Below, in pieces: positions 3-26,461 of a stretch of 32,000 bases of DNA. Where the stretch lies: the NCBI RefSeq assembly GCF_047555085.1, contig NZ_CP180230.1, positions 420,001 through 452,000 on the forward strand, read 5' to 3'. The stretch is from Candidatus Saccharimonadota bacterium (GTDB lineage Archaea > Nanohalarchaeota > Nanosalinia > Nanosalinales > Nanosalinaceae). The translations under genes were made by a program, and so were the position numbers. Within the stretch, counting starts at the first letter, position 1; each line of letters starts with the position of its first letter. A model generated the notes under the pieces. The model made no database searches and had not been told where the DNA came from. It was given only the letters and a program-made list of their open reading frames with translations.

Positions 3-3000
3 GACGACGGAGAAACTTACACTGAGGACGATCCTGATACATACAACGGACTTGTAAGAGCTAATTCAAGCTATGATGGCGATGGCGTTAAATGGTTCAC
101 AGATAGCTACGGGCCTGCTGCTGAGGTAGAGTTAACTCCTTACAATCCACTGGATTATTCTGATGGATATGCACTGGAGGATGACTGTGGGCCTGATGTA
201 GAGTTCTGTGAGGACTCAGGCCTTGCAAATACTCATATGGAGGGGAGGGCGGTGTATTCATACTTTGAAGAAGGTAGGCCTGAAGATGACAGAATCAATT
301 CTCTTGTTGAGGATGGTAGCGAGGATGAAATAGTTGCTGGAGAGGTGTTCACAGGAGTTTCTGTCAGGACATGGGTGGGATATGCCAACGGTACAGCTAG
401 TTACGAGCATGGTGCCACAAACAATCAGGATGAGGAGAATACGGAAAATACTGTGTTTGATTCATCTGATAACTGGCCTACAGAGAACTTGAATGATTCA
501 AGTATTGATAGACTGGAGGATACATGGGCAATCGCAAATACCACTGAGAAGGCTGTAGGGCCTACAGGAAGGCCTTATCCGGAAGGAAAGTGTTATGGTC
601 GTAGCCCGCTAAGTGTCGATGATTACCAGGTAACTAAGAATGAGAAGGTGATGGGTAACTCCTTCGCAAAAGCCGTTGATATCAATGGAGATGGCACTTC
701 CAGGAAGAAAGGTGTCTGGGTGAATCCTGATTCCACAGTTGACTCTGCTCTTACAGGAAATCTTTCCTGTGATCTAAACGTGACTGACTGGGGATTCGGA
801 TATAATGCAAGTACTGATGCCGATTTACAGGTTATCCGTGGAGATGCAAGAGAGTTCGGATACGACAGGGATGATCCTCATGTTGTAGTCGGAGACATAC
901 CTTTCGATATCAACTCGGATCCTAACGGCGTAGGAGAAGACGAAAATCTTCAGCAATACCCTAACGCATGTGGCGATGACAGAAACGAGTACCTTATCCG
1001 CGAACACCGTGATACCGCCGACAGCACCGAACAGATGCCAGATCTTACAGAGGACGATATATACGGCTGTACAGACAGGATCAGTGACTGTGTATTCAAT
1101 GGTTCCATATACAGCGAGGGCCAGGTAGTAGACATACAGTCATACGGTAGAGAGGAACGTGGAACCAACTCAATAGATGAAGAAGTCTGTGTAGATGTAG
1201 ATGAAAGTATTCCTGGAGGAGAATGGTACGATGTGGATAACGAATCACTGAACCAGTATCTGAAAGGGGAACAAGGCCTCTATACAGAGGATAATCCTGA
1301 TACGTACACCGGAGTGGTAAGGGAAAACGCAAGTTACAGCGGCGATGGCGTAAAGTGGTTCACAGATAGTTATGGGCCTGCAGAAGAAGTAGAAATCTCG
1401 CCGTTCAATCCTTTGAACTATTCTGATGGATACGCTTTGGAGGATGACTGTGGGCCGTCAATCGATTACTGTGAAGACTCTGGAGTGGAGGATACTCATT
1501 TCGAGCCTGATGCTGTGTACTCGTTCTTTGAGGAAGGGCATATAGGCGATGACAGGAGGCCTAGTCCGGAAGATGATACAAAGCCGGATCCGAACAGCGA
1601 CTACTTTGAAGCTATCTCTGTAAGAATGTACGTTGGATTTGCTAACGGTACTGCGTCAGCTGAGCACGGTGCTACAAACGGTCAGGATAAGGAGAACGTG
1701 CCAGATAATCTTGATTTCAACGTTACGAAGTGGGGTAAGACTGTATCGCTAAATGATTCTACGATTGATCCGCTTGAAGACACATGGGCTCTTTCAAACA
1801 GGACTTCTGCGATCGTTGGACCTACAGGAAAGGTCTACAGTGAAGGAAAGTGCTACGGACAGAACGTACTTGATCAACCCGACTACCAGCTTACAAAGGC
1901 TCAGAAAGCTGTAGGTAACTCGTACGCCATGACTGTTGACGTAAATGGAGACGGTACATCAAAGGAGAAAGGTGTATGGGTGAATCCGGATTCAACCGTG
2001 AAATCCGCTACTACAGGAATCCTTTCATGTGAACTAAACTCTACTGACTGGGGTTATGGATTTGATCTAGGTAACAACTCTGATCTACAGATTATCCGTG
2101 GAGATGCACGCGAGCAGGATTACGATAGAAGCGATCCTCATGTAGTTGCCGGGCCTGTACAGTTCGATATAGAGTCTGATCCAGGTGCTGCGGAGCAGGA
2201 TCACTTGCAGCAGTATCCGGGTGCCTGTGGAGATGATAGAAATGAGTACCTTATCAGAGAACATCACAGTCCTATTGAAGGCCTTGAACATGATCCATCT
2301 CTGGAGAGAGATAATATCTACGGATGTGCGGACAGGATCAGTGACTGTACATTCCAGGGAGAAGTATACAGCGAGGGCCAGGTAATCAACGTGGAGAATC
2401 AGAGTAGTGAGAGAGGCGTTGATTCTGTGGATGAAGAAGTCTGTGTAGACGTAGATGAAAGTATTCCTGGAGGAGAATGGTACGATGTGGATAACGAATC
2501 AATCAACCAGCTTATCAAGGGAGAAAACCATATCGGTGATAATACAGCGTCTTATCAGAATTCTTTCGTTAGAACAAAGGAAAACTATGACGGTGACGGC
2601 GTAGTATGGTTCAACGATAGCTTTGCACCGGCAGAAGAGGCCGAAATTTCGCCTTATAACAATATTACTTATTCCGATGGATATGCATTGGAGGATGACT
2701 GCGCAGAGAATATTCAGTACTGTTCCGATGAAGGCGCCACAGAACAGCATTTCACTCCTGATGCTGTGTACTCGTTCTTTGAGGAAGGAAGGCCTGAAGA
2801 CGATGCTAATGTCTTCGAAGGACGCAGCGTCAGAATGTACGTTGGATACGCCAACGGTACAGCTAGCTACGAGACAGGCGCCACGAATGATCAGGATACA
2901 GAGAATACTTATGGCCTTGAGTTCGATTCAACGGAGTATGACTGGCCTACCGAAAACTTGAATGATTCTACGATCGATCCGCTTGAAGACACCTGGGCAT

Positions 3001-6000
3001 TGTCAGCAAGACTTGAGTGGCCTGTAGGCCCTACAGGAGAGGTCTGGAGGAATGGTTCCTGTTACGGGATGAACCCTTGGAACTCACCGGATGCCGACTG
3101 GGTGACAAAAGATCAGAAAGTCGTTGCCAACTCTCTTGCAATGGCGGTTGATGTCAACGGATATCCTCCTGAAAATGCGCACTATGATACTTCAGAGATT
3201 GCGGATCAGAAGAAAGGTGTATGGGTGAATCCGGACTCCAGTGTAAGATCTGCTACCTCCGGAGGAACAAGCTGCGATCTGAACGCTACTGACTGGGGAT
3301 TCGGTTACAACCTCGGAGATGGTGAAGAACTACAGCAGATTGAAGGAGACATCCGCGAACAGGGATACGATCCGAATGATCCGAACGTAGTTGCCGGAGA
3401 TATCAAGTTCGATATCAACTCGGATCCTAACGGCGTAGGTGTAAGTGAGAACTTGCCTCAGTACCCTGAGGCCTGTGGAGACGACAGAAACGAATACCTG
3501 ATCAGGGAGCATAGAAGCCTTTCAGACAACTCTGAGCATAATCCGCAGCTAGATGATGAGGATATCTACGTATGTGCAGACAGGCCTAGTGACTGTGCTT
3601 ACAACGGTGAAGTGTACAGTATGGGCCAGAAAGTTGATATTTCAAGTGAGAGCGATGACGAGGAGCTTGGAGTAGGTTCTGAGGATGCAGAGATATGTGT
3701 GGACTCCAATCCGGAGATTCCGGGAGGAGAGTGGCAGGATGCAGATAATGAAACTAATAGAGAACATGTAATTGGAGACGGTGATCCGAACAAGACTGAG
3801 ACGTATGATGGATTTATCAGCTACAGGAACGGAAGCGGAAACGTCCACTGGTTCAACTATACTTGGGGTGCAGACGTTGATTATCCTGCAAGAGAGGCCA
3901 TGATTTCGCCGTATAATCCTGTAAATTATTCTACAGGATTTGCTCTTGAGGATGATTGTGGGCCTGAAGTCAGTTACTGTGAGGATACAGGCCTTACACA
4001 GACGCATATGAATAATGACAGCGATCCAAGTGACGATCTTGTGTACTCTCCGTTTGTTGCGGGTGAAGGTGCTGATGACTATGACGTATTCGATGGTACG
4101 GTTGTCAGGATGTATGTTGGTGGAAGTGCCGAACACGGTGCATCGAATCCTCAGGAGGATCAGAATGTTTTCGAGAATCTCCCTCAGTTGAACGATTCCA
4201 CAATTGACAGGAATGAGGATACATGGGCGATCGCGGGAGAGCCTTACTATGCTGTAGGGCCTACAGGGCATGTATACAAGAATGGTTCGTGCTATGGAAG
4301 GTTCAACAGTGAGACAAAGGCTGGAACTGTCGTAGCTAATTCGTTTGCATATGCTCATGATGTCGATGGCGACGGCCAGAAGGAGGGTGACTGGGTTGAT
4401 CCGGATAACTATGAAGACGCAGTTCTGAATGGATACGGTACCTGTGAGCTCAGCAACATGTCCGACTGGGGAATGGGATACAACAACCAGTCCAGAGATG
4501 AACTCAGAATTATACAGGGAGATGTACGTGAAAGAGGCTACAATGATACAGAGGACTGGAAGTTCCACGTAGTTTCAGGGCCTATCCAGTTCGATTCCGA
4601 GAATGATCCTGGGACTATGGAACAGGACAATCTTCCACAGTACCCGAACGCATGTGGAGATGATCAGAACGAACATCTGATCCGTGAACATATGAGCGAC
4701 TCCACGAAAGATGAGGCAAGGCCTGCACTGGAGAGAGATAATATCTACGGCTGTGCTGATAGAGTAAGCGACTGTGTTTACAATGGCTCTGTATACAGTG
4801 AGGGACAGACAGTAGATATCTCAAGTGTAGGAAATGATGCCGAGGCCGGCCTCAATTCGACCGATACAGAGGTCTGTATAAATACTGATGACAGGATTCC
4901 GGGAGGAGAATGGCATGATATCGACAATGTTGAGTGGCGTGACTATCTGACAGGTGCAAACGATACAGACTGGGACTACGAAGAGGACAATATTTCAAGT
5001 TACAAGAGGCTTGTTGAGCCTGAGACAGGAGATCACTGGTTTACAGATGATCACCCAGCAGCTCTGGAAGTAGAGCTGTCACCTTTCAATCCATTGAACT
5101 TCTCCGATGGATACGCGCTTGAAGACGACTGTGATCCTGACCTGGCGTACTGCGCCGATATTGGAGAAGAGAACCAGTACATGCCTGGATATGCAGTTTA
5201 CTCGGCATTTGAAGAAGATGTTGGAGAGGACGATTCCAACGTTTTCGAGGGAAGAGCTGTAAGAATGTACGTTGGATACGCCAACGGTACTGCATGGGCA
5301 CACCACGGCGCAACAAATAATCAGAGCGAGGAAAACAGTGGAGAACTCAACTTCAACGTTACAAAGTGGGGTAAGACAATTCCACTTAATGACTCCACTA
5401 TCAACAGAAGAGAAGACACATGGGCTATCGCAGACAGCACATCTGATGTAGTAGGCCCAACAGGAAAGCTCTACGATCCTGGCAAGTGTTACGGCGGCAC
5501 TCCTTCCACAGAGGATGAAGACTGGGTCTACAAGAACGAGACTGTTGTAGCAAACTCATTCGCCTATGCACAGGAAGTCAACGGCGACGGCAACGAGGAA
5601 GGAGTCTGGGTGAATCCTGATTCCACAGAGAAATCACTTACACAGGGCAACTTCAGCTGTGAACTGAACACCAGTGACTGGGGAATCGGCTACGATACAG
5701 GAGAAGGAACAAATCTTCAGGCCCACTACGGAGAGCCAAGAAGCAGTGGATACGAGGCCTCTGATATACACGCCGTCTCAGGGCCTATACAGTTCGATAT
5801 AGAGTCTGATCCTGGAGAGAAAGAGCAGATGGATGAGCCTCAGTTCCCAAGTGCCTGTGGAGATGATCACAATGAGTATCTGATCCGTGAGCACGGCTCT
5901 AACGTTGGGAATGAGTTCAGGCCTAACCTTTCACGTGACAATATTTACGGCTGTGCGGACAGGATCAGTGACTGCGTGTACAACGGCGAAGTCTACAGTG

Positions 6001-6425
6001 AAGGACAGACAGTAGATATTTCAGAGGCCTCTGCTCCGGGAGAGAATCCTGAGCGTGGAGATGATATTGCAGATGAGGAGATCTGTCTTGACCTGGATAA
6101 GAGCATCCCTGGAGGAGAGTTCTATGATAAGGATAACAACTGGACTGTAGAGAGCAAGATCCGGGAGATCGCTGATCAGCCTGACAAGACATGGGAGAGA
6201 ATAGAGTACTTCGAAGATCATGATTTCAGCAGGAATCCTGGAACTGACTGGAAGAACAGAACTCACAAGCTGAACAGGACAGACTTCGGATTCTTCAACA
6301 ACTCCGGATTCACAGAGGCAGAGTACGAGAGTTACAGGCCTTCAGGATACGCCACGGAGGATGACTGTGGAACAATCATGCAGAGGCCTTCTACAGGGCC
6401 TTGTGGGGATGTAGGTTCGGATACA
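3..6425 (+). repeat. In-frame tandem array of 385-425-aa coding modules (1 partial + 5 complete copies)
   Basis: Module starts, set at the (A/L)VYS.FEEG motif, fall at nt 249, 1512, 2763, 4038 and 5193; the last copy ends near 6425. Motifs recur in the same order in every copy: VRMYVGYANGTAS.EHGATN, LNDSTID.LEDTWA, VGPTG..Y..G.CYG, NS(F/Y)A..VDVNGDG...GVWVNPDS, SC.LN.(T/S)DWG.GY, HVV.G.I.FD..SDPG, QYP.ACGDD.NEYLIREH, DNIYGCADR.SDC..NG.VYSEGQ, EVC.D....IPGGEW.D.DN, SP.NP.N(Y/F)SDGYALEDDC......YC.D. Confidence 0.9.
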
Positions 6426-8363
6426 CAGAATATTTCATGGTTTAACGCAGGTAACTTCTCCTTTATCCCGAACAATCCTGAGATGCAGGAAGGTGCTCCA
6501 CAGGACAACTTCGATGATTTCTACGGTTTCACCGGCTACCACAACATGATTGATGACTCTTCGGATCAGTTCGAGCCAGGTGCAGCTACACAGAGAAACT
6601 GGAATCTATCCGATGTCTACGGTGAAAACTACAGGGTATACGACAGCAGGGACAGCACACCAGGACCTGATAAATGGGCGCTCACACGGTTCATGAACTA
6701 CTCGGTCGATAACCGTGGAAACGGCTATCCTCCAGCTACGGAGAACAGAGCAGGATGCTTCTACAGAGATGGAGTGCAGGAAAGAACAGATGTCGATGAT
6801 CAGGGTGTAGACAAGAAGGACAAGATATTTGGAAACTCTGTTGCGGCAGCAAATGATTACGATAACGACGGAGAAGTTGAAGGTGTCTGGGAGGATCCTG
6901 ACGATGTAGGCGTCATGTATGCAAACTTCAGCTGCGATATCACAGGCCCTGACAAGGGATACGGATTCGATACCGGTGATAATGAAGGAGAGTTCAGCTA
7001 CAAGAATGACGACAAGAGCACGCACGTCGTTACGGGAGATATCGCATTTGCTGTCACCGATGGAAAGACAGGAGCCTTCGAACAGGAGCCTCCGGTCTGT
7101 GGAGACGATCACAAGGAGTACCTGCTTGAAGAGCTGGGAGCCACACAGAACAGTCTTGAAGGAACAGGACAGTGGGGCTGCGGAACCGATAGAAACGACT
7201 GTGTGGCCAGAAGCGGAGGAGAATACGCACTTTACCGTGAAGGAGACACCGTCAATACTAATGAGGCCTCTGAAAAATTCGGACGCTCAAAGGACGATGC
7301 AGAGGTCTGTATGCAGAGAACACAGGATACCTACGGCGTATGGTACGATCAGGATTACGGCCCTGAACTCTGTCAGGTCAACAATCTCTACGGATCAGCA
7401 GGTGTAAGATGGATAAGCCCTGAATACATCGACAGAAAGCCTTACTCCGTAGTAGAGGGAATCAATGATGATATGAATCCTTACCTTGCCGAGAACTCTG
7501 GAGACTTCAATAAATCAACTCAGGGCAACGTTACAAAGTATCTGAATAATCCAGAGGACAGGACTCCGGTGCCTACAGGAAAAGATGTCAACAGATCTGT
7601 AGACAGTTATTACTCCGACTACAACGCATGGAGTCCAACAGATGAGTACCTGAACTACTCTGCCACGAAAGGATTCTGTGGAGGAGACGACGAAGGAGAG
7701 AACATCGTCGTACAGCAGGCATCCACAGAACTTATTCAGACAAACTACTCGGTCATAGGTATCGCCGATGATCCTGACGACTGCGTACTTGATGGATCAA
7801 ACTACGACTCTGTAGGACATGACAAAAGAAAACTATACAGCCCAGGAGACGAAGTAGATCTTGATCTGGGACAAAGCCAGAGAACAATCTCCTGCTACTC
7901 CGGACAGTGGTTCGCAAACTGGCCTGTAACATTCCTGCAGGAAAACGTCTCAGTAGAGGCCACTACAGAAAGAGAAATTCTGTTCAAGGTAATCAATGTC
8001 CGAAACACAGAGACATCATACGAAGTAAACATGGACGTTGATGAGGAGCTTGAGGCCTTCACACAGTTCAGCGGATACGACGGCGACTCGTTCACCACGA
8101 CAGTCCCAGCAGAGTCCTCACGCCAGTACAGCATCCAGGTCTACGGACAGAATAATGACATCGGGCCTGCAAATATCAGTATAAGTGCAAACTCGCTTAC
8201 AGGAGATATAGAAGGATCTGATGAAGTCACAGTAGATGTAGTGGAAAACGTGGATACATCAGGCACTACATCCCAGACAACTTCAGAAGTTCCAGGCCTG
8301 CTGCCGGTACACCTGATCTTCCTGATGCTGCTATCAACACTTATCTACTACAGAAGACTGTAA
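3..8363 (+). CDS. Giant hyper-acidic cell-surface protein, C-terminal ~2,786 aa (5' end upstream of window)
   Basis: The frame is open from nt 3, before the track's first Met at 237. nt 3-236 translate to ...DGDGVKWFTDSYGPAAEVELTPYNPLDYSDGYALEDDCGPDVEFCED..., which is the tail of a further repeat copy. The protein is D/E-rich, has many N-x-S/T sequons and about 8 positionally conserved Cys per module. The C-terminus is a Thr/Ser-rich linker + PGL + hydrophobic helix + RRL. I recognise no catalytic motif. Confidence 0.9.
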   Translation, partial: DDGETYTEDDPDTYNGLVRANSSYDGDGVKWFTDSYGPAAEVELTPYNPLDYSDGYALEDDCGPDVEFCEDSGLANTHMEGRAVYSYFEEGRPEDDRINSLVEDGSEDEIVAGEVFTGVSVRTWVGYANGTASYEHGATNNQDEENTENTVFDSSDNWPTENLNDSSIDRLEDTWAIANTTEKAVGPTGRPYPEGKCYGRSPLSVDDYQVTKNEKVMGNSFAKAVDINGDGTSRKKGVWVNPDSTVDSALTGNLSCDLNVTDWGFGYNASTDADLQVIRGDAREFGYDRDDPHVVVGDIPFDINSDPNGVGEDENLQQYPNACGDDRNEYLIREHRDTADSTEQMPDLTEDDIYGCTDRISDCVFNGSIYSEGQVVDIQSYGREERGTNSIDEEVCVDVDESIPGGEWYDVDNESLNQYLKGEQGLYTEDNPDTYTGVVRENASYSGDGVKWFTDSYGPAEEVEISPFNPLNYSDGYALEDDCGPSIDYCEDSGVEDTHFEPDAVYSFFEEGHIGDDRRPSPEDDTKPDPNSDYFEAISVRMYVGFANGTASAEHGATNGQDKENVPDNLDFNVTKWGKTVSLNDSTIDPLEDTWALSNRTSAIVGPTGKVYSEGKCYGQNVLDQPDYQLTKAQKAVGNSYAMTVDVNGDGTSKEKGVWVNPDSTVKSATTGILSCELNSTDWGYGFDLGNNSDLQIIRGDAREQDYDRSDPHVVAGPVQFDIESDPGAAEQDHLQQYPGACGDDRNEYLIREHHSPIEGLEHDPSLERDNIYGCADRISDCTFQGEVYSEGQVINVENQSSERGVDSVDEEVCVDVDESIPGGEWYDVDNESINQLIKGENHIGDNTASYQNSFVRTKENYDGDGVVWFNDSFAPAEEAEISPYNNITYSDGYALEDDCAENIQYCSDEGATEQHFTPDAVYSFFEEGRPEDDANVFEGRSVRMYVGYANGTASYETGATNDQDTENTYGLEFDSTEYDWPTENLNDSTIDPLEDTWALSARLEWPVGPTGEVWRNGSCYGMNPWNSPDADWVTKDQKVVANSLAMAVDVNGYPPENAHYDTSEIADQKKGVWVNPDSSVRSATSGGTSCDLNATDWGFGYNLGDGEELQQIEGDIREQGYDPNDPNVVAGDIKFDINSDPNGVGVSENLPQYPEACGDDRNEYLIREHRSLSDNSEHNPQLDDEDIYVCADRPSDCAYNGEVYSMGQKVDISSESDDEELGVGSEDAEICVDSNPEIPGGEWQDADNETNREHVIGDGDPNKTETYDGFISYRNGSGNVHWFNYTWGADVDYPAREAMISPYNPVNYSTGFALEDDCGPEVSYCEDTGLTQTHMNNDSDPSDDLVYSPFVAGEGADDYDVFDGTVVRMYVGGSAEHGASNPQEDQNVFENLPQLNDSTIDRNEDTWAIAGEPYYAVGPTGHVYKNGSCYGRFNSETKAGTVVANSFAYAHDVDGDGQKEGDWVDPDNYEDAVLNGYGTCELSNMSDWGMGYNNQSRDELRIIQGDVRERGYNDTEDWKFHVVSGPIQFDSENDPGTMEQDNLPQYPNACGDDQNEHLIREHMSDSTKDEARPALERDNIYGCADRVSDCVYNGSVYSEGQTVDISSVGNDAEAGLNSTDTEVCINTDDRIPGGEWHDIDNVEWRDYLTGANDTDWDYEEDNISSYKRLVEPETGDHWFTDDHPAALEVELSPFNPLNFSDGYALEDDCDPDLAYCADIGEENQYMPGYAVYSAFEEDVGEDDSNVFEGRAVRMYVGYANGTAWAHHGATNNQSEENSGELNFNVTKWGKTIPLNDSTINRREDTWAIADSTSDVVGPTGKLYDPGKCYGGTPSTEDEDWVYKNETVVANSFAYAQEVNGDGNEEGVWVNPDSTEKSLTQGNFSCELNTSDWGIGYDTGEGTNLQAHYGEPRSSGYEASDIHAVSGPIQFDIESDPGEKEQMDEPQFPSACGDDHNEYLIREHGSNVGNEFRPNLSRDNIYGCADRISDCVYNGEVYSEGQTVDISEASAPGENPERGDDIADEEICLDLDKSIPGGEFYDKDNNWTVESKIREIADQPDKTWERIEYFEDHDFSRNPGTDWKNRTHKLNRTDFGFFNNSGFTEAEYESYRPSGYATEDDCGTIMQRPSTGPCGDVGSDTQNISWFNAGNFSFIPNNPEMQEGAPQDNFDDFYGFTGYHNMIDDSSDQFEPGAATQRNWNLSDVYGENYRVYDSRDSTPGPDKWALTRFMNYSVDNRGNGYPPATENRAGCFYRDGVQERTDVDDQGVDKKDKIFGNSVAAANDYDNDGEVEGVWEDPDDVGVMYANFSCDITGPDKGYGFDTGDNEGEFSYKNDDKSTHVVTGDIAFAVTDGKTGAFEQEPPVCGDDHKEYLLEELGATQNSLEGTGQWGCGTDRNDCVARSGGEYALYREGDTVNTNEASEKFGRSKDDAEVCMQRTQDTYGVWYDQDYGPELCQVNNLYGSAGVRWISPEYIDRKPYSVVEGINDDMNPYLAENSGDFNKSTQGNVTKYLNNPEDRTPVPTGKDVNRSVDSYYSDYNAWSPTDEYLNYSATKGFCGGDDEGENIVVQQASTELIQTNYSVIGIADDPDDCVLDGSNYDSVGHDKRKLYSPGDEVDLDLGQSQRTISCYSGQWFANWPVTFLQENVSVEATTEREILFKVINVRNTETSYEVNMDVDEELEAFTQFSGYDGDSFTTTVPAESSRQYSIQVYGQNNDIGPANISISANSLTGDIEGSDEVTVDVVENVDTSGTTSQTTSEVPGLLPVHLIFLMLLSTLIYYRRL
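6820..7360 (+). repeat. Degenerate partial copy of the module core inside the divergent C-terminal region
   Basis: KIFGNSVAAANDYDNDGEVEGVWEDPDD ... FSCDITGPDKGYGFD ... HVVTGDIAFAV ... PPVCGDDHKEYLLEE ... GCGTDRNDCV ... YREGDTV ... AEVCM ... GVWYDQD follows the motif order of the full modules at much lower identity. Confidence 0.6.
8250..8360 (+). other. C-terminal sorting/anchor signal resembling archaeal PGF-CTERM (PGL variant)
   Basis: The last ~36 aa read DTSGTTSQTTSE-V-PGL-LPVHLIFLMLLSTLIYY-RRL-stop. That is a Thr/Ser-rich linker, a Pro-Gly-hydrophobic tripeptide, a ~17-aa hydrophobic helix and a short basic tail, which is the layout of archaeosortase (ArtA) substrates. Confidence 0.5.
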
Positions 8364-8418: not shown

Positions 8419-9189
8419 ATGAAATCAGCCAGAGAAATCCTCGACTCGATGATAGAAAAAGGATCCCATGAAATAGACAGGGATACCGATGGATTGCTGC
8501 TTTCAAGCTTTTCAGCAGGCCTTGACATAGGATTCGGGCCTCTACTGATGGGAGTAATACTTACTCTTTCAGTTGGCAGTTACGGTGACTTAAGCACAGA
8601 GCTGCTTCTGGCAAGTGCTTACTCTGTAGGATTTATCTTTGTCATACTCGGAAGATCGGAACTTTTCACAGAACACACTGCGCTGGCGGTGATGCCTGTA
8701 ATCGATGGAGAGGCCTCCCTGAAAAGTCTTGGAAGATTATGGGGGATAGTCTACGCAGGAAACATTATAGGAGGCCTGGTATTTACAGGCCTTGCCGTAC
8801 TTCTTATGCCAGGCCTTGGAGTTATCAGTCCGGAGGCCTTCGGAACAATTGCATCCAAACTTGTTACTCATCCGCTTCACTGGCTGTTGATTGCAGGAGT
8901 GTTTGCAGGATGGCTGATGGGATTACTGGCATGGCTGATTTCCTCGGCAGAGAACACGATAAGCCGAGTATTCTTCATCTGGATGGTCACAGCAACTATA
9001 GGCATGCTGCATCTTCCGCACAGCATCGCAGGAAACGTCGAAGTTCTGTTCGGCCTCTTTACGACTAACAGCGTCACTGTAATTGATTATCTCTCCTTCC
9101 TTTCACTGGCAACGATCGGAAACGCCATAGGAGGAGCGATATTCGTAGGCCTCATGAAGTACGGCCACGTCACAAGAGGCGCAAAATAA
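8419..9189 (+). CDS. Formate/nitrite transporter (FNT) family channel
   Basis: 256-aa polytopic membrane protein. It carries FNT-type signatures GRSELFTEHT (family G.ELFT..) and LPHSIAGNVE (family H.IAN) with Gly-rich helices between them. Confidence 0.75.
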   Translation: MKSAREILDSMIEKGSHEIDRDTDGLLLSSFSAGLDIGFGPLLMGVILTLSVGSYGDLSTELLLASAYSVGFIFVILGRSELFTEHTALAVMPVIDGEASLKSLGRLWGIVYAGNIIGGLVFTGLAVLLMPGLGVISPEAFGTIASKLVTHPLHWLLIAGVFAGWLMGLLAWLISSAENTISRVFFIWMVTATIGMLHLPHSIAGNVEVLFGLFTTNSVTVIDYLSFLSLATIGNAIGGAIFVGLMKYGHVTRGAK

Positions 9190-9295
9190 CACAGGACTCA
9201 AGTAACTTTCAAAACTTTTCCCGGAGAAACACTTGTTTAGAGGCGCAAAAATATGATTCGAAATTCAAAGAATTTCTGTATCACGCAGAAAACAC

Positions 9296-9301
9296 AAGGT
9301 G
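9296..9301 (+). promoter_or_regulatory. Shine-Dalgarno-like AAGGTG 7 nt upstream of the proS GTG start
   Basis: AAGGTG is complementary to the archaeal 16S 3' end (..CACCUCC). Its spacing to the GTG at 9309 is 7 nt. Confidence 0.4.
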
Positions 9302-9308
9302 TTTTCGA

Positions 9309-10787
9309 GTGAGTCAGGAACTCGGGATCACGGTAGATAAACATCAGGATACTTCAGAATGGTATACACAGGTAGTCAAGAAGGCAGGCCTTGCGGATTA
9401 CGCGCCTGTCAAAGGCTGCATGATAATCAAGCCTTACGGCATGAAGCTCTGGGAATCGATCAAGGAAAACTTCAATGATAAGATCACGGATACAGGAGTT
9501 GAAAATGCTTACTTCCCGCTTTTCATCCCGGAAAGCTACCTTGAGAAAGAAGAGGATATTGTGGAAGGATTCGATCCCGAAGTTGCATGGGTGACACACG
9601 GAGGAAACGAAGAACTGGAGGAAAGACTCGCAGTAAGGCCTACATCCGAAAGTATAATTGCACCATACATGAGCGACGAAGTAAGAAGCCACAGAGACCT
9701 GCCGCTGAGGCTCAACCAGTGGGCCAACGTCGTACGCTGGGAGCCTACCGATACAAGGCCTTTCCTGAGAACTCGAGAATTTTTGTGGCAGGAAGGCCAT
9801 ACAGCACACGCAACAGAAGAAAGTGCCGACGAGGAAACGATGCTGCGCCTAGAACAGTACCAGGAAGTGATCGAGGACCACTTGGCTATTCCTTCGATTC
9901 TTGGTTACAAGCCGGAGCACGACAAGTTCCCGGGAGCGAAGTATACTACAACGATTGAGACACTGATGCCGGACGGAAAAAGCATCCAGTCAGGTACTTC
10001 ACACCAGTTAGGCCAGCACTTTGCAGAGGCCTTCGATATCACTTTCGAGGATGAAGACTCGGAAACTCAGACAGCGTGGACGACGTCATGGGGCCTCTCA
10101 ACAAGGACGATCGGTGCCTTGATCATGGCTCACGGCGATGATGACGGCCTTAGATTGCCTCCTTCCGTTGCGCCGCATCAAGTGGTTGTCGTACCTATCT
10201 TCCAGGAGGACAATCAGGAAGAAGTCATGGATTACGCGGAAGAAGTGGCTGAAGATCTCGAAGACGAAGGCCTTCGTGTCGAGTTCGATCACAGAGAGCA
10301 CCGCACCCCTGGCTACAAGTTCAATGAGTGGGAACTGAAGGGAGTACCTCTCAGAGTTGAGGTCGGACCGAATGAGATGGAAGACGACGCGGTTACAACT
10401 GTGAGACGAGACACTGGAGACAAGGAGATGGGCATTGACAAAGAAGAATTCATTGAGTCCGCAGAGTCAACTCTTGAAGATATTCAGGCCTCTATGTACA
10501 GCGAACTGGAAGATTATCTGCATGAGAACATCAGAGAGGCAGAATCCAAGAACGAAATTTTAGCGACAATCGGCAAGTCAAGAGGCTACGTCAAGACACG
10601 ATGGTGTGGAAAAGAAAGCTGTGAAGAAGAAGTCAAGGAAGAAGTCTCGGCAGAGATCGTAGTCCTCCCGTTCCAGGAAGACTCGGAACCAGCTACAATA
10701 CAGGCCTCAGAAGAAGAAATCTCTGGAGAATGCGCAGTCTGCGGAGAAAACGCCGAGAGATGGGCATATTTTGCCAAGAACTACTAG
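9309..10787 (+). CDS. proS: Prolyl-tRNA synthetase, archaeal/eukaryotic type
   Basis: 492 aa with a GTG start. Class II motifs are present: FLRTREFLWQEGHTAH, SHQLGQHFAEAF, WANVVRWE. The C-terminal Zn-type domain (CGKESCE...CAVCGE) and the terminal ...FAKNY are typical of archaeal ProRS. Confidence 0.93.
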   Translation: MSQELGITVDKHQDTSEWYTQVVKKAGLADYAPVKGCMIIKPYGMKLWESIKENFNDKITDTGVENAYFPLFIPESYLEKEEDIVEGFDPEVAWVTHGGNEELEERLAVRPTSESIIAPYMSDEVRSHRDLPLRLNQWANVVRWEPTDTRPFLRTREFLWQEGHTAHATEESADEETMLRLEQYQEVIEDHLAIPSILGYKPEHDKFPGAKYTTTIETLMPDGKSIQSGTSHQLGQHFAEAFDITFEDEDSETQTAWTTSWGLSTRTIGALIMAHGDDDGLRLPPSVAPHQVVVVPIFQEDNQEEVMDYAEEVAEDLEDEGLRVEFDHREHRTPGYKFNEWELKGVPLRVEVGPNEMEDDAVTTVRRDTGDKEMGIDKEEFIESAESTLEDIQASMYSELEDYLHENIREAESKNEILATIGKSRGYVKTRWCGKESCEEEVKEEVSAEIVVLPFQEDSEPATIQASEEEISGECAVCGENAERWAYFAKNY

Positions 10788-10806: not shown

Positions 10807-10832
10807 TTTTTCTTCTTTTTATTCTGATTTTT
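10807..10832 (+). terminator. Oligo-T tracts downstream of proS
   Basis: Three T5 runs (10807-10811, 10816-10820, 10828-10832) start 20 nt after the proS stop. Archaeal termination is oligo-T driven. The tract overlaps the 3' end of the convergent ORF. Confidence 0.4.
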
Positions 10833-11466
10833 GAGGATTCTTGTCTTCTACTATATTTACTCTCTGTTCTCTGCTGTATCTTGACTGGAACTTTGCCAGT
10901 TTTTCAGCCCTCTGTGTAGCTGCTGGAGGGCTTTCGGCTCTGTTTCTTTCGACGTCTTCTACTGTTCTGTTGAGTATTTCCTCTCTGTTCCCCAGTCCTT
11001 CAGGGCCTGATGTATCTGGCCTCACAGCGGTATACTCCGGATCTATTTTTATCTCTATTTCAGGATCATGCTCCAGAATGTTATCCACAACTGTTGAGAT
11101 GCAGTCGTTCAGCCAGACACCGGCCAGAGTAACTTCTTCTGTTTCTGATGTTATACTCTCTAACTGCTCCTCATTTAGATCGCCGTTGCTGTCGTCTTCC
11201 AAAATTTCATCGTATTCGTGAAAGTTGTAAGGCAGGTGTGTCTGATCTTTAATTTCTCTGGGCCTTTTGATGGCCTTGTGATCCAGCGGTAAATCTGATC
11301 CTCTATCCAGATACGCCACTGCTGTTGTATGCCCATATTCTTCAAATGCAGAATCTATTCTATCCTCCCAGTGATCGCCGTACAAAGCTTTACCTGAGTC
11401 CTCATCAAACTCTCCTCCAAGATAAACAATATCACCGTGAACCACTACCAGTTCATCTTCAGCCAT
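10819..11466 (-). CDS. Acidic hypothetical protein (215 aa)
   Basis: Long ORF with the same D/E-rich composition as neighbouring genes. I recognise no motif securely; the segment VTLAGVWLNDCISTVVDN is only faintly like a cysteine-hydrolase/isochorismatase strand-helix. Confidence 0.55.
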   Translation of the reverse strand: MAEDELVVVHGDIVYLGGEFDEDSGKALYGDHWEDRIDSAFEEYGHTTAVAYLDRGSDLPLDHKAIKRPREIKDQTHLPYNFHEYDEILEDDSNGDLNEEQLESITSETEEVTLAGVWLNDCISTVVDNILEHDPEIEIKIDPEYTAVRPDTSGPEGLGNREEILNRTVEDVERNRAESPPAATQRAEKLAKFQSRYSREQRVNIVEDKNPQKSE

Positions 11467-12283: not shown

Positions 12284-13492
12284 TCAGATCTCCATTACCT
12301 CGGAAGTTTCGTGGCCTGTTGAGGCCTCTGTGTCTCCGTGACTCATTCCTGTGTCTCTTATGAAGTCGGCGGCCTCGTTGACGAACTGTTTCTCGTAGGT
12401 CTCTGTTGAAGGCCTGTACTGCATCTCGAGAGCATCTCTGTTCTCTTCTCCGTGATCTATTTTTCCTGGATTAAAGCCAGCGTATTCGAATCCAAGTCCT
12501 TCAAGCTCCTCTGCTGCAGTTGGAAGATATGGGCTGTTGGCATCCAGCGTGAGGCCTATCCAGTAATCCTGATCGTCTTCATCTTCCTGTATCTGGCTTT
12601 GAGCTTCCCCGATCTCCTGAAGTACGTCGTTCCATGTGTAGTCTCCGCTTTCGTCTTCCACGATCTGTACTTCGGCGAAGTTCATAGGATCGCCGACAGC
12701 TTTCGGCTTCACTTTGTAGTTTCGATTACGGTGCTCTGTATGCGCCGTATTAACTGTTCTAGTTATAGCATCAAGGCTGGAATCTCTTTTTGCATTGATG
12801 TTGTCCCTTGCTGTTGTAACGATGTCTCCAGCTGCTTCCGGCACATAAACTTGCTCCTGCTCATTCTCTATATGGGAATCAGCCCAGATCATATCGACTA
12901 CAGTCACACGGCCTTTACCTCTGTACGCCATCGGGAATTTCTTGTCGTACACTCCTGTCACTGCAAAATCGTGCTGATTAGCAACGTGCTGAGTTGCAGC
13001 AGATTTATCCGCCAGTAACTGTGTATATGCGATATCTACAGGATCATCAGGATCAGCAACCATGCCTGAAACTGTATCAAGGCGATCAGAGAACAACTCG
13101 CTGTAAACTGTCCGACCTGTGTCACTGGACCGAAGACTTCTATCATCTTCTCTGATAATCGTTGAACCCAGCTCTGCAAGATTATCCTGAAACTTTATCG
13201 CACCAACGCCTATGAAATCTCCATCAGAATCCTCAACAGTACGTACAATTTCGGGAGCTTCATCAGAAGACCATTCATCAACAGTCCATTCTCCAACTAC
13301 CTCATCAGGACTCACGCCGTCAAGTTCCTCATTCATAACCTTCAGAAAGGCCTCCAACTCCTCACTATCAACATACTTCCCGTAATACTTCTCATACTCG
13401 TTCTGGAAGGCCTCTGTAATATCCTCTGCGTCTTCAGGCCTTGAACGCCTTATTTCCTCGTTTATAGATGTTTTTCCATCTGTTTCTGCCAT
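12284..13492 (-). CDS. Conserved hypothetical, probable double GNAT-fold acyltransferase-like protein (paralog A)
   Basis: 402 aa. The N-terminus IRRSRPEDAEDITEAF and GVGAIKF...AELGSTIIREDDR resemble the GNAT beta1/alpha1 and beta4 elements. The C-terminal half (YWIGLTLDANSP...ELEGLGFEYAGF) looks like a second GNAT-like lobe. It is clearly paralogous to 19020-20150. Confidence 0.45.
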   Translation of the reverse strand: MAETDGKTSINEEIRRSRPEDAEDITEAFQNEYEKYYGKYVDSEELEAFLKVMNEELDGVSPDEVVGEWTVDEWSSDEAPEIVRTVEDSDGDFIGVGAIKFQDNLAELGSTIIREDDRSLRSSDTGRTVYSELFSDRLDTVSGMVADPDDPVDIAYTQLLADKSAATQHVANQHDFAVTGVYDKKFPMAYRGKGRVTVVDMIWADSHIENEQEQVYVPEAAGDIVTTARDNINAKRDSSLDAITRTVNTAHTEHRNRNYKVKPKAVGDPMNFAEVQIVEDESGDYTWNDVLQEIGEAQSQIQEDEDDQDYWIGLTLDANSPYLPTAAEELEGLGFEYAGFNPGKIDHGEENRDALEMQYRPSTETYEKQFVNEAADFIRDTGMSHGDTEASTGHETSEVMEI

Positions 13493-18659: not shown

Positions 18660-19031
18660 ATGAGCTCTCAGGCAAGGCCGGAAACTACTTTTGAAAGAGT
18701 TCAGAACGCTGCTCCAGAGAAGCTATACGATGATATTCCAGAGCTTACAGGTCTTGATGAGAGATATGTTGTTTTTGAATATGATCTCGGTGGCGGTGTA
18801 GGTGTTATACCATCTGAAGAAATAAAGAGAATACTTGAAGAAGGCCGAGAACAGGGAGAGATATTCCCGGTCTTCAGAGGTATAGAAGCCAGCGAGGCCT
18901 ATGTCAGGAACGCCGTGGAAAACGGAGAAGGCCTGATGACTGCCCGACTTGAAGACGGCGAAGTCTACAGCACCGGCTACATGATTGACGATGAGGAATT
19001 GAAAGGCCTGATGACTTTCTCAACCGACTGA
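18660..19031 (+). CDS. Acidic hypothetical protein (123 aa)
   Basis: ORF with the host-like acidic composition. Its 3' end overlaps the convergent gene by 12 nt. I recognise no motif. Confidence 0.5.
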   Translation: MSSQARPETTFERVQNAAPEKLYDDIPELTGLDERYVVFEYDLGGGVGVIPSEEIKRILEEGREQGEIFPVFRGIEASEAYVRNAVENGEGLMTARLEDGEVYSTGYMIDDEELKGLMTFSTD

Positions 19032-20150
19032 TACTCTTCTTACATGGTCAACAGGCCCTTTTCCGTGGTCCTGGTAATCTATTCCTGTTGCGTCAAGTGC
19101 TTCAAGCGCCGAGTCTATCAACTGTATTTCTCCTGTGCCATCTTTTGAATACTGGAATCCAAGTGCATCGCTTACTTCATCATCATAGTTCATTGCTTCA
19201 GGGCTGAATCTTTCTGGTGTAAATCCTCTCTCTGAAAGCTCCTGACTTGCCTCCCAGGCTGATTCATCATTGGCATCAAACTCCACACCAACCCATCGGA
19301 CATCATCGTCCTCTAGGGCCTGATCTACAGCATCCAGAGCTTCATCTATCGACTGTTCGCCGCCCGGTGTCAACTGGTAGCTCGCCATCTTTCCAACTTC
19401 ATCGTCGTAAACTTTCTCGGTTAAATGGTATCCAGCGTTCACTTCTTCAGGCCCTACATGGAGATCCCTGCTCAAGGCCTCTCCATCCCGTTCCTCGTTC
19501 ACTCCGGAAAGAACCTGATCTACAAGGCCTACAGTATCGTCTGTTACAAATACGTCTCTGGAATCTCCTGCAGTGAATTCGTAGTTGCCATCAGGATATA
19601 CCATCGGTACGACGGTTTCACGGCCTTCTCCGTTGAAGATTTCAGGATACTTGTTAACACTGACGCCTTCCGGTACAGCACCTTTCTTCGCATGACCATG
19701 CTGAGTCTTCGCATGTGTGGATGAGACTGGATGTGTGACGTATCTATCCGCATCGGAGTTTCTGGCTACCTGAACTCTCTGATTCACAAGATCCTGATAA
19801 AACGGTGCTCCATCCATCTCCTGGAAATCAGGGTCAAGGACAATTCCTCCGAACTCGGCCTCATGTCCACCACGATGGAACTTCACTGAGCCTGTTCCAA
19901 CTACTGTATCTTCAGGCACTTCCTCTCCGTCTATAACCTGTCCGCCCTTAACCTCTACCACAAAGTTTTCACTATCTCCTCCAGGAATAACTTCCTCCTG
20001 AACCATTGCGGGATCAGTAAAGGCAACGAATGGATAATCCTCATAGACAGCGTTGTAGGCCTGTGCTATACCCTGAGCATCCATCTCATCGGCTCTTGCA
20101 GGCCTTACATGGTAGTTTACTGCGTCCTGTTCTTGGTCCATTTCCGGCAC
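19020..20150 (-). CDS. Conserved hypothetical, probable double GNAT-fold acyltransferase-like protein (paralog B)
   Basis: 376 aa, alignable by eye with 12284-13492. The pairs are GTGSVKFHRGGHEAEFGGIVLDPDFQ / GVGAIKFQDNLAELGSTIIREDDR; KTQHGHAKKGAVPEGVSVNKYPEIFNGEGRETVVPMVY / ATQHVANQHDFAVTGVYDKKFPMAYRGKGRVTVVDMIW; RWVGVEFDANDES...ELSERGFTPERFSP / YWIGLTLDANSPY...ELEGLGFEYAGFNP. Confidence 0.45.
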   Translation of the reverse strand: MPEMDQEQDAVNYHVRPARADEMDAQGIAQAYNAVYEDYPFVAFTDPAMVQEEVIPGGDSENFVVEVKGGQVIDGEEVPEDTVVGTGSVKFHRGGHEAEFGGIVLDPDFQEMDGAPFYQDLVNQRVQVARNSDADRYVTHPVSSTHAKTQHGHAKKGAVPEGVSVNKYPEIFNGEGRETVVPMVYPDGNYEFTAGDSRDVFVTDDTVGLVDQVLSGVNEERDGEALSRDLHVGPEEVNAGYHLTEKVYDDEVGKMASYQLTPGGEQSIDEALDAVDQALEDDDVRWVGVEFDANDESAWEASQELSERGFTPERFSPEAMNYDDEVSDALGFQYSKDGTGEIQLIDSALEALDATGIDYQDHGKGPVDHVRRVSVG

Positions 20151-20590
20151 CGATAGCTTTCGCTTCCGCTATTTGAATGATTTTGAGTTACCTTGGTGTC
20201 GTGTGGTTGTATGTTGTTGTGTTGTAGTGTCATAGATTGAGTATCACCAAAAACAGAAACTTTCGAGGCGTATAGAGGCCTCTACAGAATCAGGATAATC
20301 AGCAGAATAATAGATACGGCACTGAATCTAGCTGAAGTCAAGTCAGTGCACTTTGAATTTGAAAACTGTGAAAAAACTGTAGAACTGTTAGAGCCAAGGC
20401 TAAAGCTATGATAATTACAGCTCTTGCAGAACGCGGCCACCCTTCTGGAGGCCTTCAATAAAACGTCCACCCTTGATTGCCTTGGACATAGACTCTGTTA
20501 TGACACTATCGTTTAAATACCTGTTGTAAATTCTATGTGTTTTTTCTGCAGGCCTCTATCTTGTGTTTCTGCGGCGTTCGTTCACTCACC

Positions 20591-20600
20591 TATTTAAATT
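20591..20600 (+). promoter_or_regulatory. Candidate TATA box (TATTTAAATT) for psmB
   Basis: AT-rich TATA-like octamer about 65 nt upstream of the ATG at 20663. A GGTGAT SD-like element lies at 20651-20656. Confidence 0.35.
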
Positions 20601-20662
20601 TGGCATGTCAATCTAAGCGTAGGAAGTTTTTCCTGATTACTGCATTTCTCGGTGATGATTTA

Positions 20663-21310
20663 ATGGAAAATAATGTTCAACAGAAGGGAAAGGATATGAA
20701 GGAATTTGAAACCGGTACAACTACTGTAGGCCTTACTACAGAAGAAGGAGTAATCCTGGCAGCTGATAAGAGAGCCTCTATGGGCCGCTTGACAGCTTCC
20801 AAGTTTGCGCAAAAGGTCTACAAAATTGATGATAATCTGGGCCTTACTATCGCGGGAAGCGTCGGCGATGCACAGAAGATCGTCCGCTTGATGCGTTCAC
20901 AGCTGAAGATGAAGAAGCTGGAGACAAAAGAGCTCAGCGTTAAAGGAGCAGGCACACTGCTTGCAAATATTCTTCACGGCAACAAGATGATGCCGTTCAT
21001 GAACCAGTTCATTCTTGGAGGAGTCGACGATGGAGAGGGAGTTCTCTACGATCTCGATCCTGCAGGAGGCCTGATGAAGCATGAAAAGTTTACAGCAACA
21101 GGTTCAGGAAGCCAGATGGCATACGGAGTTCTTGAAGATGACTTCCAGAGCAATCTTGAACACGAGAAAGGGAAAGAACTTGCCATCAGAGCCGTACAGT
21201 CCGCTATTGAGAGAGATACAGCATCCGGAAACGGTATAATGGTCGTAGAGATCACGGAAGACGGCTACAACGTAGTAGAGGATAGAGAAATAGAGTCGAA
21301 GCTTGCGTAA
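20663..21310 (+). CDS. psmB: Proteasome beta subunit (with propeptide)
   Basis: I start at the ATG at 20663 (MENNVQQKGKDMKEFETG|TTTVGL...). The G|TTTVG processing site with the catalytic Thr1 and GSVGDAQ, GTGSG are typical of archaeal PsmB. The 42 upstream codons in the track ORF are Cys/Phe-rich and non-acidic, so I excluded them. Confidence 0.9.
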   Translation: MENNVQQKGKDMKEFETGTTTVGLTTEEGVILAADKRASMGRLTASKFAQKVYKIDDNLGLTIAGSVGDAQKIVRLMRSQLKMKKLETKELSVKGAGTLLANILHGNKMMPFMNQFILGGVDDGEGVLYDLDPAGGLMKHEKFTATGSGSQMAYGVLEDDFQSNLEHEKGKELAIRAVQSAIERDTASGNGIMVVEITEDGYNVVEDREIESKLA

Positions 21311-21412
21311 GCAGGCCTCTCAATATTTTTCTACTTTTTCTATCCTATCCAGAGTTACAGTTCAGAAGTTTACAACAGATGATTCAAACAATTTTTAGGT
21401 GATATTACAAAA

Positions 21413-23290: not shown

Positions 23291-23323
23291 AAAATAGAGG
23301 CCTAACAGGCCCTATTCCCTACA

Positions 23324-23329
23324 TTTTTT
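23324..23329 (+). terminator. T6 run after aCPSF1
   Basis: CATTTTTTC lies 34 nt downstream of the stop at 23288-23290. Confidence 0.4.
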
Positions 23330-23336
23330 CAAAAAT

Positions 23337-23347
23337 TTCTATAAATG
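23337..23347 (+). promoter_or_regulatory. Candidate TATA box (TTCTATAAATG) for the LamG gene, geometry of a leaderless transcript
   Basis: Centred about 26 nt upstream of the ATG at 23368 and preceded by an A-rich BRE-like tract. There is no SD. Confidence 0.45.
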
Positions 23348-23367
23348 CCTGTAGCCAATACATACGT

Positions 23368-24807: not shown

Positions 24808-24812
24808 GAGAA

Positions 24813-24819
24813 TTTTTTT
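24813..24819 (+). terminator. T7 run after the LamG gene
   Basis: AATTTTTTTC begins 6 nt after the TAG stop at 24805-24807. Confidence 0.45.
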
Positions 24820-24864
24820 CTGATCGGCGTATGAATTTTAAGCGAAACTTTCGAACTTGTGTTT

Positions 24865-25116: not shown

Positions 25117-25192
25117 TAGAAAAAATTCTTCAACTACGGATCGTGTACGGCCTTTGAAGTAGGAAAAGATCGGATAAATGTGTGGAGGGCCT

Positions 25193-25567: not shown

Positions 25568-25610
25568 TAATGTTATGCTACCTCCTAGTTGTAAGCGTGT
25601 TCTACACGTT

Positions 25611-25620
25611 TTTATATATT
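25611..25620 (-). promoter_or_regulatory. Candidate internal TATA box (minus strand AATATATAAA) ahead of sepF
   Basis: Located in the 57-nt UPF0147-sepF spacer, about 45-50 nt upstream of the sepF ATG. Confidence 0.3.
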
Positions 25621-25624
25621 GTCT

Positions 25625-25870: not shown

Positions 25871-25873
25871 TGT

Positions 25874-26206: not shown

Positions 26207-26222
26207 AAATTATCTTTACACC

Positions 26223-26447: not shown

Positions 26448-26461
26448 CCCGAAAAAGGCCT

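Follow-up and report, generated by a model that had tools for sequence, protein, structure and literature searches.

How do nanohaloarchaea make contact with the cells on which they live, and does the giant gene studied here take part in it? To our knowledge, little has been established about how DPANN archaea recognise their hosts and keep hold of them, and the discussion of host contact in nanohaloarchaea has centred on SPEARE and LamG proteins. The window analysed, a stretch of 32,000 nucleotides (nt) covering positions 420,001 to 452,000 of the forward strand of contig NZ_CP180230.1, opens with the greater part of a gene for a giant protein that is built of tandem modules of about 415 amino acids (aa). 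This protein belongs to a family, here called the CGDD-module surface proteins, which is nanohaloarchaeal and whose module matches no described family or solved fold. The gene may encode the stalk-and-anchor subunit of a surface assembly that is found only in Nanohaloarchaeota and contacts the host, a reading to which we give about even chances; its main rival is a general role in the cell envelope or surface layer (S-layer).

The giant protein and its module array

Frame 3 of the forward strand has no stop over nt 3-8360 and ends with a stop codon at 8361-8363, which gives 2,786 codons in the window. The listed open reading frame (ORF) starts at 237 (237-8363) only because ORFs leaving the window edge are not listed. 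The window protein is 100% identical over its whole length to ACK3SF_02500 (P0001 in our numbering) of Candidatus Nanosalina sp. VS9-1, a very small, halophilic and symbiotic archaeon; the protein is annotated as a 'hypothetical protein' of 3,709 aa and is encoded on a 1.05-Mb contig. The window starts at residue 924 of this protein, with 923 codons upstream, and the residue numbers used below are those of P0001 minus 923. The full protein consists of eight modules recognised by a module hidden Markov model (HMM), m1-m8, and the window holds its C-terminal three quarters.

The initial annotation, made from the letters of the DNA, had postulated a giant modular protein of a small halophilic archaeon with its N-terminus outside the window, and this was borne out, the protein being nanohaloarchaeal and its frame unbroken over nt 3-8360. 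It had also called the protein hyper-acidic, which has to be given up: the D+E content (20.7%) is only the proteome background and is ordinary beside the 22.0% of ProRS and the 25.2% of Rrp42. The composition of the giant protein is unusual in its low K+R (6.1%) and in its contents of Asn (7.4%), Gly (9.4%), and Cys (1.9%).

The modules were cut at the motif S[DT]G[YF]ALEDDC, the phase of the repeat being arbitrary. The C-terminal end of m2 (3..158, aa 1-52, its visible part 100% identical to P0001) is followed on the plus strand by five complete modules, M1-M5, which together span aa 53-2112. M1 (= m3; 159..1421, aa 53-473) matches the module HMM with score 706 and E 1.8e-215. M2 (= m4; 1422..2672, aa 474-890), M3 (= m5; 2673..3929, aa 891-1309), M4 (= m6; 3930..5102, aa 1310-1700), and M5 (= m7; 5103..6338, aa 1701-2112) were delimited by the module alignment and the HMM; M3 has a 16-aa loop insertion after the VDVNG motif, and M4 is the shortest, with 391 aa. 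The count of one partial and five complete tandem modules given in the initial annotation is thus correct. The motifs recur with a period of 391-421 aa, and the complete modules are pairwise 49-61% identical in protein and 64-70% identical in DNA. Tandem Repeats Finder reported no repeat here, the period of ~1,250 nt lying above its limit.

The ordered motif set that had been proposed for the module holds in part. It does recur every 391-421 aa, with VGPTG, CYG, ACGDDxNE[YH]LIREH, IPGGE[WF]xD, and S[DT]G[YF]ALEDDC each present five times in the window protein, but GC[AT]DRxSDC is found four times plus one variant, and VD[VI]NGDG only twice as an exact match.

The array recurs in an independent metagenome assembly: in the orthologue P0002 (locus L007), all eight modules are present and their order is unchanged. 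The first of these is interrupted by an insertion, and the seven modules compared are 81-91% identical to their P0001 counterparts.

Insertions into modules occur in other family members as well. In P0004, a JGI metagenome protein annotated as 'BamB', a WD40/PQQ-like beta-propeller (aa ~1420-1720) sits inside one module, between module-HMM positions ~205 and ~211. Unassigned insertions of 100-340 aa are found in a similar module region (HMM positions ~205-245) in P0003, P0006, P0007, and P0002. Finally, an antisense ORF of 308 aa lies inside the giant gene (3642-4568, minus strand); it is most likely a shadow ORF arising from biased codon usage.

Relation to known families and folds

Searches of Pfam-A (2025) with the whole protein, a single module, and the tail gave nothing at E<=0.01, and the whole protein at E<=0.1 gave only two sub-threshold matches of chance level. 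NCBIfam (June 2026) yielded no family match to the giant protein and only chance-level matches at E>0.1; the archaeal S-layer models of Pfam and NCBIfam did not match it. Among PDB chain sequences, phmmer found no match to the giant protein, and the module and anchor profiles had 0 matches at E<=10. The module was modelled with AlphaFold2 from M2 and the residues preceding it (aa 403-890). The model shows a confident, mostly beta core at model residues ~135-437, with an overall predicted local distance difference test score (pLDDT) of 63.9 and a predicted template-modelling score of 0.66. In Foldseek comparisons, its best PDB match had E 1.1 and a template-modelling score (TM) below 0.1, and nothing significant was found in BFVD.

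By Pfam, PDB profile, and Foldseek, the module has no profile match to the common adhesin repeats (Ig/BIg, cadherin, PKD, FG-GAP/VCBS, TSP3, HYR). For LamG, PKD, and Ig, Pfam gave no match in the window protein at E<=0.1; the same method detects LamG at 23368-24807. The early impression that the module fits no described family therefore agrees with the Pfam, NCBIfam, PDB sequence, PDB fold, and BFVD searches, and its fold is undescribed in the libraries searched.

Family and conserved locus

A word-indexed search of 5.8 billion clusters retrieved 23 relatives. With a profile built from 23 module instances and HMMER at full sensitivity, 1.84 billion representatives yielded 113 proteins at E<=1e-3, 55 of them at E<=1e-30. 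Every match with a source name comes from Nanohaloarchaea, apart from one mis-binned contig, and the members include SVXNc_0418 of Candidatus Nanohalococcus occultus and LC1Nh_0457 of Candidatus Nanohalobium constans. The family, as defined in this analysis, is characterised by at least one module of ~350-415 aa with the cysteine pattern EDDC..C, CYG, SC[DE]L, CGDDxxEYL...C...C...C, of which six lie in the window and eight in the full protein. The giant protein also has the C-terminal arrangement of the family, that is, an anchor-type module, an extra CGDD unit, an Ig-like sandwich, the motif [EN][VI]PG[ILM], and a transmembrane helix, and its gene is located upstream of the genes for a formate/nitrite transporter (FNT) and ProRS, as is usual for the family. 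Members range from 1,418 to 4,622 aa and contain one to about ten modules, and in relatives VWA, C-type lectin, PKD, and GEVED domains occur beside the modules.

One candidate bacterial homologue, on contig L004 (JBLGBK010000008.1, 1-16310, from a metagenome-assembled genome named 'Colwellia polaris'), was rejected. This contig encodes a 1,534-aa family member, then an FNT protein 83% identical to that of the window, then ProRS (86%). Because of these identities and the same gene order, we consider it a mis-binned nanohaloarchaeal contig.

The order of module protein, 256-aa FNT, and 492-aa ProRS is found in the window and in L001, L003, L004, and L007. Two small extra genes precede FNT in L007, and in L005 the module protein is followed by ProRS. 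The gene order of SVXNc, 0418...0421 ProRS, agrees with this arrangement (PMC10266531 Table S1). Literature searches gave nothing relevant on the locus tags of the family (in main texts), on archaeosortase in nanohaloarchaea, or on PGF-CTERM in DPANN.

Fusion and fission of tip, stalk, and anchor

The family members are encoded in different forms. In form (a), represented, for instance, by SVXNc_0418 and LC1Nh_0457, there is one polypeptide of ~1,400-1,650 aa with the tip region fused to the rest; it begins with a signal peptide and the N-terminal region (~650 aa), followed by a CGDD unit, a single module, another CGDD unit, the sandwich, and finally the VPG-transmembrane anchor.

In form (b), the same path is divided between two genes. 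The first encodes a secreted protein of 1,750-2,500 aa with the N-terminal region, VWA/GEVED/lectin domains, and two modules, and it ends at one alignment column ('...WFSAGNFS..P') in 13 of 13 cases (P0011-P0023). The second gene lies in another frame, 12 nt downstream (L001, 15200-15500; the junction is also seen in L002, 11250-11480). Its product of ~660 aa has its own signal peptide, resumes at 'EGxxQDNFD', as in 'EGAPQDNFD', and continues through the rest of the module and the tail to the anchor. Such stand-alone anchor proteins, 22 in number, are 32-56% identical to window aa 2160-2786, and all but one cover 96-100% of this segment, the exception being P0099 (446 aa) with 68%. At the corresponding position of the giant gene (6465..6488, about aa 2155-2162) the frame is open. 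A split 'inside a domain' was considered and rejected, since no particular phase of the repeat is given by nature and the split falls where the mature N-termini of family members begin (EGxPxD[DN]); most simply, the split point in these relatives would be a domain boundary.

In form (c), observed in Nanosalina, the array and the anchor are fused and the N-terminal region, or tip, is a separate upstream gene. In L007, the locus of the 85% orthologue, the tip gene (3638-5977) encodes 779 aa, with 24 nt separating its end from the giant gene. Its VS9-1 counterpart is ACK3SF_02495 (749 aa), just upstream of the window, the adjacency to the giant gene being judged from the consecutive locus tags 02495/02500. 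The tip protein is predicted to be secreted and is homologous to the N-terminal ~650 aa of the single-polypeptide family members. Since the same pieces are joined in some lineages and are adjacent genes in others, the tip, array, and anchor most likely act as one assembly.

Comparison with the two-gene form also suggests the origin of the array. Module m1 corresponds to the first module of the two-gene proteins, m2-m7 all correspond to their second, and m8 to their anchor module. As m2-m7 all match one module type, the array arose by amplification of that type from one copy to six.

Membrane-proximal part

Behind the array lies the anchor-type module (= m8; 6339..7367, plus strand as all features below, aa 2113-~2455), which is full-length: it is recognised by the module HMM (E 3.7e-25) and aligns along the whole module length with 31-34% identity to the array modules. 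The initial annotation had seen here a divergent tail with a degenerate half-module. The tail in fact opens with this complete sixth module, and what remains of the half-module is an extra CGDD sub-domain (FCGGDD...C...C; 7665..7922, aa ~2555-2640) located after it. This sub-domain resembles the CGDD unit of m8 in hhalign (probability 83%, E 8.5e-6) and is modelled by AlphaFold2 with pLDDT 70-82. An anchor-type module is present in every family member, so that the 'degenerate' last module is the ancestral type. In the ~1,500-aa relatives, the tail together with the single module matches the anchor HMM at E 1e-145 to 1e-191. Between m8 and the extra sub-domain there is a conserved spacer of low predicted order (7368..7664, aa 2456-2554; pLDDT <50) with the alignment-invariant motifs VRWI and DDDMNPYL.

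The sub-domain is followed by a seven-strand Ig-like beta-sandwich (7926..8249, aa ~2642-2749), modelled with pLDDT 82-92, so that the proposed beta-sandwich stalk is present. Its Foldseek matches in the PDB are the MG domains of complement C3/C5/CVF and PapD-like/ASH domains (E 7.5e-8 to 1e-5); the comparison with 2e6j gives TM 0.68 and a root-mean-square deviation of 3.2 over 113 columns.

Next come the Ser/Thr-rich linker VDTSGTTSQTTSE (8250..8288, aa 2750-2762), recognised from the sequence, and a VPG motif directly before the membrane helix (8289..8297; VPGL here, with the family consensus [EN][VI]PG[ILM]). The protein ends with the transmembrane helix LLPVHLIFLMLLSTLIYY and the cytoplasmic tail RRL, followed by the stop codon (8298..8363). 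The helix comprises 18 hydrophobic residues and is also seen in the AlphaFold2 model (model residues 609-626), and only RRL lies behind it. The C-terminal membrane anchor proposed at the outset is therefore real, and its 'archaeosortase-type' label is putative. No sorting-signal model matched the last 87 or 306 aa (NCBIfam scan, E<=1), and the motif is VPG[ILM], not PGF. Neither the window nor ~125 kb of related loci contained another ORF with an [EN][VI]PG[ILM]-helix-basic C-terminus. P0001-P0010, the 22 anchor proteins that stand alone, and the relatives of ~1,500 aa all keep the VPG motif. That the VPG-helix-basic signal persists even where overall identity falls to 32% argues for a function beyond passive anchoring.

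Predicted surface location, glycosylation, and disulfides

Several features indicate that the giant protein is an extracellular glycoprotein. Hydrophobic N-termini resembling signal peptides are found in the orthologues P0002, P0006, and P0008 and in all 22 stand-alone anchor proteins. The giant protein contains 65 N-x-S/T sequons, compared with 26.9 +/- 4.3 in composition-matched shuffles. Further, the cysteines covary in pairs among 128 near-full module instances from 77 proteins. Columns 189/246 both hold cysteine in 87 instances, neither does in 39, and no instance has just one; for columns 83/90 the corresponding numbers are 117, nine, and two. In the CGDD unit, four cysteines hardly vary at all (fractions 0.98-1.0). 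These two covarying pairs and four invariant residues imply about four disulfides per module. The genome table of SVXNc lists DsbB and protein-disulfide isomerases (PMC10266531). Together with the adhesion domains in relatives, the orthologue signal peptides, the sequon excess, and the cysteine pairs give good, though indirect, support to the surface location assumed in the initial annotation.

Evolutionary rates and expression

Between VS9-1 and the L007 strain, the identity is 89.8% for FNT, 84.6% for ProRS, 85.5% for the giant protein, and 51% for the tip protein. Along the giant protein, 200-aa bins give 76-92%, with the C-terminal bin alone lower, at 68%. Judged by these identities, the stalk evolves like a housekeeping gene and the tip diverges much faster. 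A conserved scaffold presenting an end that determines specificity would be expected to show such a contrast of rates.

The distant homologue SVXNc_0418 is transcribed in the co-culture of Candidatus Nanohalococcus occultus, at 4,033 reads per kilobase per million mapped reads (RPKM) (PMC10266531 Table S1). The corresponding values are 1,712 for ProRS, 3,458 for the annotated S-layer protein SVXNc_0478, 1,973 for a LamG protein, and 13,131 for SPEARE SVXNc_0300, and only eight of the first ~163 coding sequences listed exceed RPKM 4,033 (PMC10266531 Table S1).

Functional interpretation

If the giant gene encodes the stalk-and-anchor subunit of a host-contacting assembly, its product would be exported through Sec, N-glycosylated and stabilised by disulfides, and held in the membrane by the C-terminal helix behind the Ser/Thr linker and the VPG[LIM] motif. 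From the membrane outwards, the order would be helix, Ser/Thr linker, Ig-like sandwich, CGDD unit, ancestral module, and seven paralogous ~415-aa modules, and the amplification of the array in the Nanosalina clade would have produced a longer stalk. The stalk would carry the separately encoded, fast-evolving tip protein of ~750 aa, ACK3SF_02495, and it is the tip that most likely would make the specific contact with the envelope of the haloarchaeal host. The role in adhesion or host recognition, and with it the cell-cell attachment proposed in the initial annotation, is inferred from context. A stronger version, which we put forward tentatively and hold to be rather improbable, is that the locus encodes the primary host-recognition organelle of Nanohaloarchaeota, a three-part fibre with an anchor, a length-adjustable stalk of phylum-specific new-fold modules, and a rapidly diversifying tip, and that the tip and the stalk length set the host.

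Some observations weigh against assigning the giant protein to a host-contacting stalk. ACK3SF_02500 as annotated begins with MDYPNVLEG and lacks a signal peptide, so that its export is predicted from the orthologues. MDYPNVLEG aligns to residue 42 of the 85% orthologue (L007, 5968-6130), whose TTG start adds the hydrophobic leader MIVALIALVAVQTGASQG, so the start of ACK3SF_02500 was probably called too far downstream. It is only gene-fusion logic that would associate the tip with the stalk. The module has no recognisable binding-site homology, and the confidence of its model is only moderate (pLDDT 63.9). Finally, an envelope or S-layer role would account equally well for the high expression, the conservation across the phylum, and the purifying selection on the array.

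This last role is the main alternative, and in our estimate has perhaps one chance for every three against it. The giant protein would then be a structural component of the envelope, either a main or accessory S-layer protein or part of a canopy, with the anchor as a membrane stalk comparable to SlaB or to the C-terminal region of haloarchaeal S-layer glycoproteins, the modules forming the outer layer, and no specific host recognition. All nanohaloarchaeal loci examined have the gene in synteny, the transcript level of SVXNc_0418 is on a par with that of the annotated S-layer protein, and the array evolves at a housekeeping rate. In addition, the sequons, Ser/Thr linker, PG-motif, transmembrane helix, and basic tail resemble, from general knowledge, those of haloarchaeal S-layer glycoproteins. 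A lattice protein is, however, harder to reconcile with a length that differs three-fold from genus to genus (1,418 to 4,622 aa) and with the VWA, lectin, PKD, and beta-propeller domains nested in or beside the modules, which are more typical of adhesins. No S-layer model of Pfam or NCBIfam matches, and other SVXNc proteins are already annotated as S-layer (PMC10266531).

Clearly less probable, and on the whole doubtful, is a scaffold outside the cell that captures nutrients by binding or enzymatic activity, for instance polysaccharides or glycoproteins released by the host, and that is not a cell-cell adhesin. The invariant acidic and aromatic residues (D, E, W) and a DxNxDG-like loop suggest metal or carbohydrate binding, lectin domains occur in relatives, and nanohaloarchaea depend on host-derived polysaccharides (PMC7443923). 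Nevertheless, neither sequence nor fold comparison revealed a glycoside hydrolase, peptidase, or carbohydrate-binding-module family, and the presence of eight tandem copies in 1:1 orthology points to a spacer or structural part more readily than to catalysis.

The giant protein might also be a member or functional equivalent of SPEARE, that is, a surface protein with a cytoplasmic ATPase that acts as a secretion or invasion device. It is indeed giant, nanohaloarchaeal, and mostly extracellular, with the membrane anchor near its C-terminus. Yet only RRL lies behind the helix, Pfam and NCBIfam found no VirB4/TraG or type III restriction ATPase, LamG, or serine-protease region in the window protein, and SVXNc has both a SPEARE (SVXNc_0300) and a separate family member (SVXNc_0418). 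Lack of a cytoplasmic ATPase and the presence of both protein types in one genome exclude membership in SPEARE, and the reading as a whole is very improbable.

An assembly artefact, with repeats collapsed, expanded, or frameshifted, is least probable of all, since, although short reads can be wrongly assembled over tandem repeats of ~1.25 kb, the modules are no more than 64-70% identical in DNA, the frame is unbroken over 8.4 kb, and the independent assembly of P0002 repeats the eight modules in identical order, so that the gene model holds.

Other genes in the window

The remainder of the window contains the FNT transporter, ProRS, a proteasome subunit, FttA/aCPSF1, and the exosome proteins Rrp4, Rrp41, and Rrp42 (8419-10787 and 20537-29237). 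These housekeeping genes confirm a chromosomal archaeal locus. A further gene (23368-24807, plus strand) encodes a 479-aa protein with two laminin-G/ConA-like domains (Laminin_G_3, E 1.9e-54), which has no obvious signal peptide at its called N-terminus and no membrane anchor. This type of domain has been proposed to mediate the contact of DPANN archaea with their hosts. For four ORFs, 10819-11466, 12284-13492, and 19020-20150 on the minus strand and 29156-30193 on the plus strand (215, 402, 376, and 345 aa, respectively), no Pfam family was found at the thresholds used. The last of them begins with TTG and shares ~80 nt with the start of the Rrp4 gene, so its start codon may have been misassigned. 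Neither tRNA genes nor Rfam families were detected anywhere in the 32 kb.

Implications

This analysis defines a second phylum-wide family of large nanohaloarchaeal surface proteins. LC1Nh_0457 and SVXNc_0418 are testable candidates in cultivable pairs. Because the forms are fused and split differently and contain from one to about ten modules, the family offers a natural experiment on the relation of stalk length and tip identity to host range. The ~415-aa disulfide-bridged module is a target for structure determination, as neither sequence nor fold searches place it.

Comparison with known systems

Among the closest known parallels are the SPEARE proteins (Hamm et al. 2019; Reva et al. 2023), which occur in the same phylum, are thousands of residues long and mostly extracellular, have a helix near the C-terminus, and are likewise proposed to contact the haloarchaeal host. 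In SPEARE proteins, the membrane helix is followed by a cytoplasmic VirB4/TraG-like ATPase, originally described as a 'restriction' ATPase, and the outer part consists of LamG and Ig arrays (PMC6642349, PMC10266531). The giant protein, in contrast, has three cytoplasmic residues, no LamG, and an unrelated module of ~415 aa.

The haloarchaeal S-layer glycoproteins, processed by the PGF-CTERM/archaeosortase A system, share with the giant protein the acidic composition, N-glycosylation (predicted here), the Ser/Thr linker, the Pro-Gly motif, the helix, and the basic end. They differ in that the motif of the giant protein is VPG[L/I/M] rather than PGF, with no PGF-CTERM match at E<=1 and no similarity elsewhere, and in that the giant protein is four to five times longer.

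Giant repeat adhesins of bacteria, for example the RTX adhesins MpIBP, LapA, and SiiE, have extenders of Ig-like (BIg) domains of ~100 aa and are exported by type I secretion. As generally known, they too are fixed to the cell at one end, continue as a long extender in which paralogous beta-rich domains follow each other in tandem, in numbers that differ from strain to strain, and bear ligand-binding domains, VWA and lectin types among them, at the far end. In the giant protein, by contrast, the unit is ~415 aa long and cysteine-bridged, export is predicted to proceed through Sec, a C-terminal membrane helix serves as the anchor, and a separate polypeptide forms the tip in this lineage.

SlaA and SlaB of Sulfolobales provide an analogy, also from general knowledge, for the many nanohaloarchaea in which two adjacent genes encode a small anchored protein with a beta-sandwich stalk and a large secreted protein. 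There is no sequence or detected fold relationship between the two systems, and in the giant protein the two parts are fused. Similarly, the MG and PapD-like/ASH Ig folds resemble only the membrane-proximal sandwich, about 110 of 3,709 residues, at 11-17% identity; this is a generic resemblance of fold, not family membership.

Giant surface proteins of DPANN archaea and adhesins made of anchor, extender, and tip are already known kinds. New are the family of ~415-aa modules without detectable relatives, its occurrence in one phylum only at a conserved locus, and the alternative fusion and fission of tip, stalk, and anchor.

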